Assembly: GCA_035471805.1 (NCBI GenBank)
Contig: DATIPS010000058.1
Coordinates: 1,533-65,532, forward strand
DNA length: 64,000 bases
Origin: Acidimicrobiia bacterium
GTDB taxonomy: Bacteria; Actinomycetota; Acidimicrobiia; Spongiisociales; JAHEDJ01
Direction: 5' to 3'
The stretch's first letter is position 1. Each line of letters opens with the position of its first letter. The notes beneath the pieces were generated by a model. It searched no databases. It was not told where the DNA came from and saw only the letters and a program-made list of their open reading frames with translations. Below are positions 1,087-29,740 of the stretch, piece by piece. A program made the translations under genes and the position numbers.

Positions 1087-2154
1087 ATGTCTGGTCCCGT
1101 CACTCTTCACCAAGTTCTCGAACGCTTGGCACCGGGAACTCCGCTGAGGCAGGCCGTCGAGCGCACCATCCAGCAGCGAAACGGTGCACTCGTCATCCTG
1201 GGTTTCGATGCGAGCGTCGAGGGACTCTGTAGCGGCGGTTTCGAACTCGCCAACTCGGCGTTCACCCCGGCCAAGCTTGCCGAACTGGCGAAGATGGATG
1301 GGGCAATCGTGATGAACAATGCCGGCGATCAGATACTCCGCGCCAACGTGCACCTCTTGCCGGATCCAAAATACGGTACGGATGAGACCGGCGCCCGCCA
1401 TCGGACTGCCGAACGGACCGCCCAGCACACGGGCAAGCCGGTTCTCAGCGTGAGCGAGGATCGTCGTACGGCCACCCTGTTCATCGACGGAACCAAGCAT
1501 GAACTCCTCAGTCCGACTCTTGTGGCCGCCAGTGTCAATCAATCTCTGCAGACTCTCGATCGGTTCCGGAGGCGCCTGGACGACGCAGAAGAGATACTCA
1601 CTCGCTCGGAGATGGCGGATCTCGTCACGTTTCGCACGGTTCTGGCGGTGCTGCAGCGATCTGAGCTGGTGCGGAGGATCGGCCAGGAGATCAAACAGGA
1701 CGCGGTCGGCCTTGGCGAGGAGGGAAGTCTTATCGCCCTCCAGATCGCCGATCTGATTCATGGGGTCGATGAGCTTCGAGAACTCATTCTCGCCGACTAT
1801 GTTCGCCCCAATCGTCGTAGTCGGGTTCTGGGAGCGCTCAGCGACCTCGAAGCTATTCCGACGGTGGATCTGACCAGCGCCGAGGCCGTGGCCCAGGCGC
1901 TCGGCCTGGACCAGCCGGACAACGAGGCGAATGCACGCGGCCTACGGCTCCTGTCACAAGTTCCCAGGCTCCCCGATACTGTCCGCACGGCTCTGGTCAG
2001 GCACTTCCGCAATCTTCAGGGATTGCTCTCTGCTTCGGCGGCCGATCTCGAGCGAGTGGAAGGTGTTGGGGCTGCGCGAGCCGAACAGATCCGGCAGTTC
2101 TTCGATCGGATGCAGGACCGAACACAGATGTGGCAGTCGACCTTCCCCGACTGA
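1087..2154 (+). CDS. disA: DNA integrity scanning protein DisA (diadenylate cyclase)
   Basis: 355 aa; DAC domain plus C-terminal HhH; conserved radA-disA adjacency. Confidence 0.85.
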   Translation: MSGPVTLHQVLERLAPGTPLRQAVERTIQQRNGALVILGFDASVEGLCSGGFELANSAFTPAKLAELAKMDGAIVMNNAGDQILRANVHLLPDPKYGTDETGARHRTAERTAQHTGKPVLSVSEDRRTATLFIDGTKHELLSPTLVAASVNQSLQTLDRFRRRLDDAEEILTRSEMADLVTFRTVLAVLQRSELVRRIGQEIKQDAVGLGEEGSLIALQIADLIHGVDELRELILADYVRPNRRSRVLGALSDLEAIPTVDLTSAEAVAQALGLDQPDNEANARGLRLLSQVPRLPDTVRTALVRHFRNLQGLLSASAADLERVEGVGAARAEQIRQFFDRMQDRTQMWQSTFPD

Positions 2155-2204
2155 CGGGCTGCGGCCGACGCGAGGTACACTGGCTCGCCCCAACGAGAGT
2201 GTCC

Positions 2205-3044
2205 ATGGCAACAAAGAAGACCCCTGCAACTGAAAAGCCTGCCGCCGCTGCCTCGAAGAAGGCGGCCGTTGCCAAGTCCGCAACCAAGACTGCGGCTGCC
2301 AAGAAATCTACAGCCGGGAAGCCGGCGGCGAAGAAGCCCGCGGCGGCCGCCAAACCCGCTGCTTCAAAGAAGACCACCGCCGCCAAGAAGCCCGCCGCCA
2401 AGAAGCCCGCGGCGGCCGCCAAGCCCGCTGCTTCCAAGAAGCCCGCCGCCAAGAAGACGGCGTCCGCCCCAACTCCCGCGGCCAAGCAGGCGGCCGTTGC
2501 TGAAGCTGCGGGCAAGACTGCTGCACCGCGGCGCAGGAAGAAGGCGTCGCCGTTCAGCGTCGGCGACAAGGTAGTCCATCCGCATCACGGAGCTGCCGTG
2601 ATCACCAAGAAGACCAAGCTTGAAGTTGCCGGAGAGAAGCGCGACTATTTCGTCCTGGCGATCGCCACCGACCAGCTCACCGTCTCCGTCCCCATCGACA
2701 ATATCGAGGAGACCATTCGGCCGGTCATCTCCAAAGCTGCCGCCAAGCGAGTCTTTCAGCTCTTCAAGGACGACCCGCAGGAGGCCGGAAGTAACTGGTC
2801 GCGTTGGTACAAGGTCCTGAACGAGAAGATGACGAGTGGCGACATTTACCAGGTTGCCGAAGTCGTCAGGGACCTGACGTTCGCCCAGCAGACGAAAGGC
2901 ATCTCGCCCGCACTCAAGCGCATGCTGAGCAAGGCCCGGCTCACCCTCACGAGCGAGCTCCAGTTCGCGCTGGCCATCGACGAAGAAGAGGCAACCAAGA
3001 GGCTCGACAGGGCGCTTCCCAAAGTAGAGATCGAAGAAAGTTAG
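2205..3044 (+). CDS. carD: CarD-family RNAP-binding transcription regulator with ~110-aa N-terminal Lys/Ala/Pro-rich histone-H1-like tail
   Basis: C-terminal ~165 aa match CarD (FSVGDKVVHPHHGAAVI... RNAP-interacting domain). No start codon between the KAP tail and the CarD core, so the tail is fused. Start chosen at ATG 2205 (MATKKTPATEK); in-frame ATG at 2130 lies inside disA. Confidence 0.8.
   Translation: MATKKTPATEKPAAAASKKAAVAKSATKTAAAKKSTAGKPAAKKPAAAAKPAASKKTTAAKKPAAKKPAAAAKPAASKKPAAKKTASAPTPAAKQAAVAEAAGKTAAPRRRKKASPFSVGDKVVHPHHGAAVITKKTKLEVAGEKRDYFVLAIATDQLTVSVPIDNIEETIRPVISKAAAKRVFQLFKDDPQEAGSNWSRWYKVLNEKMTSGDIYQVAEVVRDLTFAQQTKGISPALKRMLSKARLTLTSELQFALAIDEEEATKRLDRALPKVEIEES
2331..2468 (+). 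repeat. 69-nt tandem direct repeat (2 units, ~95% identical) inside carD 5' region encoding AAKKPAAKKPAAAAKPAASKK units
   Basis: aagaagcccgcggcggccgccaa(a/g)cccgctgcttc(a/c)aagaag at 2331 and again at 2400; coding, not CRISPR. Confidence 0.6.
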
Positions 3045-3055
3045 GGAGGGCCGCT

Positions 3056-4120
3056 GTGGTCGTTGAGGCCGTTCGCCTGCTGATCACGTTGGTCTTGACC
3101 GCCGTCGGTTTCCAGCTCGGAGATGCCCTTTCCGACCGTTATCCGGAAGCTTTTGGGTTGTCGGATACGGCGTCCGTGGTCGGTGCAGTCCTGGGGGCCG
3201 GAGTCGGCTATGTAGGCGGCGGGATATTCGGCCGCGCCTTTCGAGTCCGCCTCGAGGTAGCGCCGGAGCGATTGGTGGCACGGGTTTCCGGACCGAGCCT
3301 CTTTGCGGGGGCATTCGGGGTGGTAGCCGGCTTGCTCGTGGGGATTGTCATCTCGATTCCCGTCGTCCTGCTTCTTCCCCCGGCGATCGGCTGGCCGCTG
3401 GCGGCTCTCGCCGTACTGCTGCTCATCCTGATAGCCGTCCGGGTCTTCATGGCGCGAGCCGAGGATCTGCTCGCGGTAGCGGGTCTGCGCAGCCGGGGGC
3501 CTCTGCGGGCCGTCACTCTCGAGGAGGATGAGCGGGCACATCTGATCGACTCTTCGGCGGCCATCGACGGCCGCCTGCTGGCGCTCGTCCAAACCGGCCT
3601 GGTGGAAGGCCGATTGTGGGTCCCGGCTTTCGTCGTCGACGAGCTGCAGGGTCTCGCCGATGCCGGTGACGCCGGTCTGCGGCGACGCGGGCGTCGGGGA
3701 CTCGAGGCACTCGAAGCGCTGCACAGCGCTACGCCCGAGTTCATGGTTCTCGAAGAGACCGTGCCCGAGTTCGACGAGGTCGACGCCAAACTGCTCCAAC
3801 TCGCTTCCAGGGCCGGCGCCCGCCTGGTCACAACGGACTACAACCTTTCGAAGGCGGCGGAACTGCGCGGCATAGTCGTTCTCAATCCGAGCGTTGTGGG
3901 GGAGAAGCTGAAGCCGATCGTCAGCACCGGGGAGACTCTCACCGTGACCATCTCCAAGCCCGGCAAGGGAGCCGGGCAAGGTATCGCCTATCTGGACGAC
4001 GGGACGATGGTGGTTGTGGAGGAGGCAGGCAGCCTGGTAGGCCATGACATCGAGGTGGTGGTGACCAGTACTACGAGGACGGCAGTGGGCCGGATGTTGT
4101 TTGCCCGCCCCGCTTCATGA
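3056..4120 (+). CDS. PIN/TRAM domain membrane protein (YacL-like)
   Basis: GTG start 6 nt after GGGAGG RBS; N-terminal TM helices, PIN-like middle, C-terminal TRAM (GETLTVTISKPGKGAGQGIAYLDDGTMVVVE); same position as yacL between disA and ispD in Bacillus. Confidence 0.75.
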   Translation: MVVEAVRLLITLVLTAVGFQLGDALSDRYPEAFGLSDTASVVGAVLGAGVGYVGGGIFGRAFRVRLEVAPERLVARVSGPSLFAGAFGVVAGLLVGIVISIPVVLLLPPAIGWPLAALAVLLLILIAVRVFMARAEDLLAVAGLRSRGPLRAVTLEEDERAHLIDSSAAIDGRLLALVQTGLVEGRLWVPAFVVDELQGLADAGDAGLRRRGRRGLEALEALHSATPEFMVLEETVPEFDEVDAKLLQLASRAGARLVTTDYNLSKAAELRGIVVLNPSVVGEKLKPIVSTGETLTVTISKPGKGAGQGIAYLDDGTMVVVEEAGSLVGHDIEVVVTSTTRTAVGRMLFARPAS

Positions 4121-15774: not shown

Positions 15775-15850
15775 TGGAGCCGGGTATCGGAATCGAACCG
15801 ATGACCACTTCTTTACAAGAGAAGAGCTCTACCGACTGAGCTAACCCGGC
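15775..15850 (-). tRNA. tRNA-Thr (anticodon UGU), CCA encoded
   Basis: 76-nt cloverleaf folded by hand: acceptor GCCGGGU/ACCCGGC, anticodon loop CUUGUAA, T-loop GGTTCGATTCC. Confidence 0.85.
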
Positions 15851-29667: not shown

Positions 29668-29740
29668 CGCCCGCGGCAGGAATCGAACCTGCGACCTACT
29701 GCTTAGGAGGCAGTTGCTCTATCCCCTGAGCTACGCGGGC
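29668..29740 (-). tRNA. tRNA-Arg (anticodon CCU), CCA not encoded
   Basis: 73-nt cloverleaf: acceptor GCCCGCG/CGCGGGC, anticodon loop CUCCUAA, GGTTCGATTCC T-loop. Confidence 0.85.

Follow-up and report, generated by a model that had tools for sequence, protein, structure and literature searches.

The locus described here lies in a 64-kb stretch of DNA from an Acidimicrobiia bacterium (the whole stretch is referred to as the window) and encodes a CarD protein that carries a long tail rich in Lys, Ala and Pro (K/A/P) at its N-terminus. The gene order in the window, derived from open reading frames (ORFs) and Pfam, is radA (partial), disA (1087-2154), carD, PIN-TRAM, ispD, ispF and cysS. An arrangement with radA-disA upstream and ispD-ispF-cysS downstream characterizes the actinobacterial housekeeping carD locus, and an identical order was found in the relatives L083, L084 and L086. 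A spacer of 50 nt separates disA from carD. The carD product is 100% identical to the database protein 'CarD family transcriptional regulator [Acidimicrobiia bacterium]' and consists of an N-terminal tail and a CarD core of two domains (Table 1).

Table 1. Features of carD in the window and of its near-identical alleles
Feature	Position	Strand	Description	Basis
carD coding sequence	2205-3044	+	279 aa + stop; ATG 2205, stop 3042-3044	ORF, Pfam, protein matches
Tail	2205-2552	+	aa 1-116, Lys/Ala/Pro/Thr-rich	composition, AlphaFold2
Conserved N-terminus MATKKT	2205-2222	+	most tailed relatives start MATKK or MA.KK	
69-nt repeat unit 1	2313-2381	+	23 aa, AGKPAAKKPAAAAKPAASKKTTA; in frame	repeat search, TRF
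69-nt repeat unit 2	2382-2450	+	23 aa, AKKPAAKKPAAAAKPAASKKPAA; in frame; length-polymorphism site	repeat search, TRF
Basic junction RRRKKASP	2529-2552	+	directly before core	alignment A2
RNA polymerase interaction domain (Tudor-like RID)	2553-2729	+	aa 117-175	Pfam PF02559 CarD_TRCF_RID
CarD C-terminal (DNA-contacting) domain	2748-3008	+	aa 182-268	Pfam PF21095 CarD_C
Shine-Dalgarno-like GAGAG, weak (putative)	2195-2199	+	5 nt 5' of carD ATG	read from sequence
Allele L084	repeat block		exactly 69 nt fewer than window	
Allele L086	repeat block		+36 nt vs window	
Allele L085	repeat block		+81 nt vs window	

The assignment to CarD, made in an earlier note on this DNA, is borne out by both Pfam domains (PF02559: E = 3.1e-15, 56.4 bits against a cutoff of 23; PF21095: E = 6.7e-26) and by a phmmer match to CarD in PDB (E = 8e-34), in which F117 pairs with residue 3 of Mycobacterium tuberculosis (Mtb) CarD. 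Sequence identity to structurally characterised CarD is about 40%. In the phmmer alignment W198, K203, K231 and K238 are the equivalents of Mtb W85, K90, R118 and K125, the roles of W85 and K125 being taken from PMC10232725, and all four residues are invariant among the relatives in alignment A2. The CarD/CdnL family is defined by a Tudor-like RID together with a CarD_C domain bearing the Trp wedge and basic DNA-contact residues. Both are present, and the product of 2205-3044 belongs to this family as the orthologous housekeeping CarD of an Acidimicrobiia bacterium. The RID is modelled by AlphaFold2 as beta strands with a pLDDT of about 90. The core as a whole has a net charge of 0 and a pI of 7.05, and the protein ends 11 residues past CarD_C. 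From this identity to structurally characterised CarD the core is expected to bind the beta subunit of RNA polymerase (RNAP) and to stabilise the open complex. Charge reversal at R25 or R47 of Mtb CarD weakens RNAP binding in mycobacteria; the equivalent positions here are L139 (2619-2621) and S161 (2685-2687), neither of them basic. Within the clade, the R25 equivalent is Leu (Gln in relatives) and the R47 equivalent is Ser (Phe in relatives). That the tail might make up for the loss of these two residues was considered as a speculative possibility.

The first 115 residues of the tail comprise 46 Ala, 28 Lys, 12 Pro, 11 Thr and 7 Ser. Lysine makes up about 24% of the tail and only two of the 116 residues are acidic (both Glu, no Asp), for a net charge of +29 and a pI of 11.5. 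With a 25-sequence alignment, AlphaFold2 assigned no secondary structure to residues 1-115 at a pLDDT of 46-58, versus about 90 in the core, and the tail is predicted to be disordered. By the definition of Strzalka et al. 2017 (PMC5714199), a lysine-repeat stretch has three or more repeats of 1-3 K/R with 2-9 neutral residues between them, spans 17 residues or more and contains Lys and Ala at 10% or more each. Residues 11-94 (84 aa) fall within this definition, with 15 basic clusters, 27% Lys and 43% Ala. As a coding sequence the tail looks normal: AAG serves for 26 of the 28 Lys codons and the GC content at third codon positions is 0.74, compared to 0.69-0.79 for neighbouring genes. In a six-frame scan of the window the carD tail was the sole K/A/P-rich segment. 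Shadow ORFs overlap it at 2269-2574 (+), 1997-2569 (-), 2308-2526 (-) and 2364-2588 (-); their products are Pro/Arg-rich or Gly/Ala/Phe-rich, a by-product of the GC-rich repeat and not genes.

The description of the tail as histone-H1-like in the earlier note holds for its composition but not at the level of family models. The NCBIfam H1-like model NF038053 gave 22.8 bits against a cutoff of 80 (E = 9e-5), and Pfam PF07382 (HC2) gave no match at E <= 0.01. Homology of the tail to H1 or Hc2 was rejected on these scores and, since all of them lie below threshold, the protein is to be regarded, from its sequence, as a member of no H1 or Hc2 family. Several relatives carry precomputed weak PF07382 matches.

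Between 2205 and 2598 there is no in-frame ATG, GTG or TTG, nor any CTG, ATT, ATC or ATA. The first internal candidate, GTG 2598, sits within the RID and was rejected, since initiation there would remove the first RID strands. A MATKK-type start also occurs in homologues with GTG or TTG start codons and is shared by the Candidatus (Ca.) Actinomarina genomes of about 32% GC (MATKTKK); such conservation indicates that MATKKT marks the true start at ATG 2205. At the other end of the tail, a basic cluster precedes the core in every relative of alignment A2 (RRRKKASPF here) and is retained even where the tail is nearly gone, e.g. in the short forms MAESKTKKKKPAF and MTSISPTKKKKEPPF. The same in-frame fusion of tail and core was found in more than 140 independent assemblies, including contigs of 2.8-4.1 Mb, and every tail indel is a multiple of 3. 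Given the lack of an alternative start, the conserved MATKK, the basic junction and the use of a K/A/P segment as linker in the double-CarD relatives described below, the tail is translated as part of CarD and, as the earlier note had stated, obligatorily fused to it.

Within the tail, TRF reported a repeat with a period of 69, 2.1 copies, 89% matches and a score of 220. The two units match at 60 of 69 positions (87%), short of the identity of about 95% claimed before; just their central stretch of about 43 nt comes near it, at about 93%. In 2000 codon shuffles of the tail, the best 69-nt tandem match averaged 34 (sd 3.2, maximum 49) and none (0/2000) reached the observed 60. The 69-nt tandem duplication is real and well above chance despite the biased codons. 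It was earlier held to have generated the tail, which is too much: the duplication supplies and accounts for 23 of the 116 tail residues and did not create the tail, which occurs clade-wide together with MATKK and the basic junction.

The repeat is variable in length, as had been suspected. A DNA alignment was made of four near-identical alleles drawn from different metagenomes, with the window as reference. Their flanks are only a few single-nucleotide polymorphisms apart, and the length differences fall within the repeat (Table 1). For one more allele, P0005 (289 aa), a difference of +30 nt follows from the protein length alone. These differences show the pattern expected of slippage or unequal recombination in coding repeats; tail length drifts and is possibly tuned in this way. 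The region is also prone to reading errors. In L001, a nanopore metagenome-assembled genome, the MATKK tail and the core are in different frames (about 1950-2540), and L012 has a run of N within the tail. Additional metagenome CarD calls (P0135, P0392, P0397, P0403 and others) carry Arg-rich extensions or CarD-IspD fusions, both of which look like wrong-frame readings of K/A/P-coding repeats. As a practical point, K/A/P repeats give frameshifted and fused gene calls in metagenome assemblies.

A survey of CarD orthologues for N-terminal extensions, which the earlier note had suggested, was made on 447 CarD cores pooled from two large protein searches, a core-only search of 50%-identity representatives and 80 genome loci; the top 150 of about 3800 family representatives were covered. 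An N-terminal K/A/P tail was present in 143 of the 447 cores, and in 142 of these 143 the core is at least 60% identical to that of the window. Among all cores at this level of identity, 142 of 158 are tailed. The median tail length is 115 aa and the range 46-477 in an automatic count, the upper value belonging to a double-core protein with its first core counted in and a tail proper of about 290 aa. A neighbour-joining tree, which is without support values and serves as an indication only, contained one clade of 34 tips, 27 tailed and 7 untailed. The N-terminal tail thus appears to be a trait of one clade. Its K/A/P composition is kept among relatives while sequence and length turn over. CarD proteins of Acidimicrobiales, Microthrixaceae and Nitriliruptorales, about 50% identical, are mostly 158-160 aa long and without an N-terminal tail, in genomes of 66-76% GC. 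Since the high-GC Acidimicrobiales are mostly tail-less, GC content was rejected as the cause of the tail. The streamlined marine genomes of Ca. Actinomarina / Actinomarinales (L015-L019) carry a hairpin insertion within the RID, NVEIFDENGEVKSKR.

Tails of the same kind stand at the opposite terminus in sister Acidimicrobiia orthologues, which the earlier note had missed. The core-only search returned C-terminal K/A/P tails on P0141, P0155, P0157 and P0172/P0273. The locus of P0141 (L081:4001-4747) reads radA-disA...carD-PIN/TRAM-ispD-ispF-cysS, as in the window. A C-terminal K/A/P tail, 39-116 aa long, is present in 92 of the 117 closest relatives of P0141 and an N-terminal one in none (0/117); P0399, a close relative named Acidimicrobiia, is itself 160 aa long and tail-less. 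P0172 and P0273 differ in repeat number (296 vs 342 aa). No protein with tails at both ends occurred among the 447 pooled cores, and the C-tailed tips are scattered in the neighbour-joining tree, again without support values. Within this one class, housekeeping CarD appears to have gained an appendage of this type at its N-terminus in some lineages and at its C-terminus in others, and the occurrence of tails at either end in sister lineages argues for selection on a position-independent physical property.

A further arrangement was found in P0121 (L083:1364-3289, 641 aa), which consists of a K/A/P tail of about 290 aa, a CarD core, a K/A/P linker of about 40 aa and another CarD core. The Trp-containing motif is retained in each of the two cores, and the gene sits in a disA-carD-ispD-ispF-cysS locus. 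The cluster of P0121 comprises 10 members, among them contigs of 2.77 Mb. P0008 and P0009 (371-372 aa) are tandem double CarD proteins too. That CarD, an essential-type transcription initiation factor, repeatedly acquired lysine-repeat DNA tethers across Acidimicrobiia, N-terminal once here, C-terminal more than once elsewhere and in tandems too, is a tentative proposal and still a rather doubtful one.

The closest precedent for the protein is found among the myxobacteria. The basic region (HMGA/AT-hook) of Myxococcus xanthus CarD can be replaced by histone H1 or by the H1 C-terminal region (PMC8156234, PMC9304148), and CarD_Ad from Anaeromyxobacter dehalogenans and CarD_Vi from Vulgatibacter incomptus naturally carry a K/A/P H1-like C-terminal domain (PMC9304148). 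These domains of Anaeromyxobacter and Vulgatibacter had escaped the earlier note, which compared the tail with the HMGA-type domain and considered it differently arranged; this comparison applies to both types (PMC9304148, PMC8156234). The two-module CarD has been described as exclusive to Cystobacterineae (PMC9304148). Similar to myxobacterial CarD, the window protein combines a CarD_CdnL-type RNAP-binding module with an intrinsically disordered, basic K/A/P region. In contrast to it, the tail is N-terminal, while the myxobacterial basic region is C-terminal and preceded by an acidic region. The window protein has no acidic tract, AT-hooks or RGRP motif, its core is a housekeeping CdnL-type orthologue in the disA-ispDF-cysS locus and not a CarG-partnered paralogue, and its host belongs to another phylum. 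CarG, the operon partner of myxobacterial CarD, is a zinc-binding, metzincin-like protein. No carG lies next to carD, which is flanked by disA upstream and PIN-TRAM downstream (carG was looked for in these neighbours and not elsewhere in the window). With the tail at the other end, no acidic region and no carG neighbour, the window protein is not a member of the myxobacterial CarD/CarG system.

With the standalone CarD/CdnL proteins of Mycobacterium, Thermus, Streptomyces, Caulobacter and Myxococcus it has in common the core domains, the Trp wedge, the basic DNA-contact residues and the genomic context; it differs in its 116 extra N-terminal residues. The PDB chains of Mycobacterium, Streptomyces and Thermus CarD and of Myxococcus CdnL are 158-170 aa long and start 1-3 residues ahead of the core, or as many as 9 in certain constructs, in agreement with the earlier statement that mycobacterial and Thermus CarD lack such a tail. 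CdnL has been described as being without a separate DNA-binding domain (PMC8156234). In a table from 2010, actinobacterial CdnL proteins are given with lengths of 137-301 residues and no further remark (PMC2919716), and no description of tails on CdnL-type CarD was found in the literature searched.

In pattern, K1-2(A/T/P)2-5, and in composition the tail resembles the actinobacterial lysine repeats of the TopA C-terminal domain, the HupB/HupS (HU) tails, FtsK, Ku and HrdB, proteins from the same phylum as the window host and from other classes. The repeats of TopA and HupB have been shown to bind DNA (PMC5714199, PMC5676037). Unlike in these proteins, the repeats of the window are borne by CarD and at the N-terminus; CarD is absent from the lists of lysine-repeat proteins that were consulted. 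Chlamydia Hc2 (PF07382), the Burkholderia H1-like proteins (NF038053) and Pseudomonas AlgP are likewise low-complexity Lys/Ala/Pro proteins. Here the resemblance is compositional, with no evidence of homology and the window protein below every family threshold. By analogy, the tail probably works like that of the H1-type Anaeromyxobacter CarD and the actinobacterial lysine-repeat tails.

As to the surroundings of the gene, a promoter scan of 1900-3300 gave no sigma-70-like promoter, and in a terminator scan of the same interval the matches were no higher than background. The PIN-TRAM (YacL-like) gene starts at GTG 3056, 11 nt past the carD stop. Its strong Shine-Dalgarno sequence GGGAGG overlaps the final base of that stop; the GAGAG of carD itself is weak. 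Rfam, applied to the whole window at the gathering threshold, returned two tRNA genes only (15778-15850 and 29668-29740, both on the minus strand), none of them near carD.

We propose, with a probability of roughly 60%, that the protein is a CarD whose obligatory, disordered, polycationic lysine-repeat tail serves as a non-specific DNA tether that raises its occupancy at promoter complexes. The core would act as in mycobacteria: its RID would bind the beta subunit of RNAP, and its C-terminal domain, which carries the Trp wedge, would stabilise the upstream edge of the transcription bubble. With initiation at ATG 2205, every CarD molecule bears the 116-residue disordered polycationic tail, which would bind duplex DNA non-specifically by electrostatic contacts, concentrate CarD on the nucleoid and offer a second flexible DNA anchor near the promoter-bound RNAP. 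The outcome would be a higher occupancy of promoter complexes by CarD, with a stronger or longer residence there, and more open-complex stabilisation, and changes in repeat number would tune the effect of the tail. For DNA binding by the tail and its effect on transcription initiation, we infer from TopA, HupB and myxobacterial CarD. A basic disordered H1-type region suffices for the DNA-binding role of myxobacterial CarD (PMC8156234, PMC9304148). In Streptomyces TopA the lysine repeats give DNA binding and processivity, and such repeats are enriched among DNA-binding proteins (PMC5714199). Mycobacterial CarD by itself binds RNAP and DNA poorly (PMC10232725). In PDB 9e7v and related entries, the deposited CarD chain is an SMT3-CarD fusion with CarD from residue 125; should the imaged sample still have carried the tag, an N-terminal addition of about 120 aa would be compatible with complex formation, which is only suggestive.

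Several points weigh against this proposal. Some lineages within the clade can do without the tail: four genome-representative loci (64-69% GC) have a stub of 7 aa (MAKTKSKY...), and Ca. Actinomarina has a basic stub of 13-17 aa only (MATKTKKTxDKYK...). No member of the clade is in culture, repeats about one read long can be miscounted in short-read assemblies, and the wide variation in tail length is also what neutral low-complexity drift would give. Among the alternatives, a tail with a function other than chiefly that of a DNA tether is unlikely but survives best: it might bind RNA, polyphosphate or another polyanion, form condensates, or provide a handle for acetylation or Clp-type proteolysis that sets the level or activity of CarD. 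Disordered regions of polycationic character bind polyanions of many kinds, Clp protease controls CarD in mycobacteria (PMC8820732), the lysine-repeat tails of HupS are reported to be regulated by acetylation (PMC11229371), and the RRRKK junction is conserved. Nonetheless, no direct support for such roles was found in this analysis, CarD works on DNA-bound RNAP, and the closest characterised tails, those of myxobacterial CarD, TopA and HupB/HupS, bind DNA (PMC8156234, PMC5714199, PMC5676037).

Somewhat less probable still is a neutral low-complexity expansion, in which the tail would be a slippage-prone disordered appendage, tolerated and without specific function. Fast turnover of sequence and length (7 to 477 aa), alleles that differ by whole repeat blocks and nearly tail-less members within the clade are all in its favour. 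However, the Lys-rich, nearly acid-free composition is tightly held across more than 140 sequences, and it is held against a GC-rich background in which mutation would not by default produce AAG-rich repeats; sister orthologues have acquired this composition at the opposite terminus. The N-terminal motif and the basic junction are conserved, no second segment of this type exists in the 64 kb, and the high-GC Acidimicrobiales mostly lack a tail, none of which fits a neutral appendage well. An annotation or assembly artefact, with the true start downstream or with a lost stop or frameshift placing the tail outside CarD, is very improbable: the repeat region is error-prone (as in L001 and L012) and shadow ORFs are open in other frames, but no start codon of any kind downstream of ATG 2205 spares the RID, the in-frame fusion recurs in independent assemblies up to megabase contigs with indels always in multiples of 3 and MATKK conserved, and in double-CarD relatives the K/A/P segment is internal.

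The chief interest of this CarD lies in the convergence of tails at the N- and the C-terminus, the existence of tandem double-CarD forms and the variation in length from strain to strain. The two-module CarD architecture is not confined to myxobacteria, and a core transcription factor joins the actinobacterial proteins that bear lysine repeats. As a regulator of open-complex stability, CarD acts globally and independently of sequence, and the way it works is shaped by how weakly it binds DNA and RNAP on its own. The natural series of orthologues, from tail-less forms through those with 7 to about 290 aa of N-tail ahead of the first core to C-tails and duplicated cores, amounts to an experiment already set up by nature on how CarD occupancy and promoter kinetics respond to an additional non-specific DNA anchor. 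If the more doubtful proposal of repeated acquisition is true, the joining of an RNAP-binding module with a basic disordered DNA-binding module, thought to be unique to some myxobacteria, would be a convergent solution, and the repeat number of a strain would serve as a heritable rheostat by which open-complex stability at promoters is set globally.

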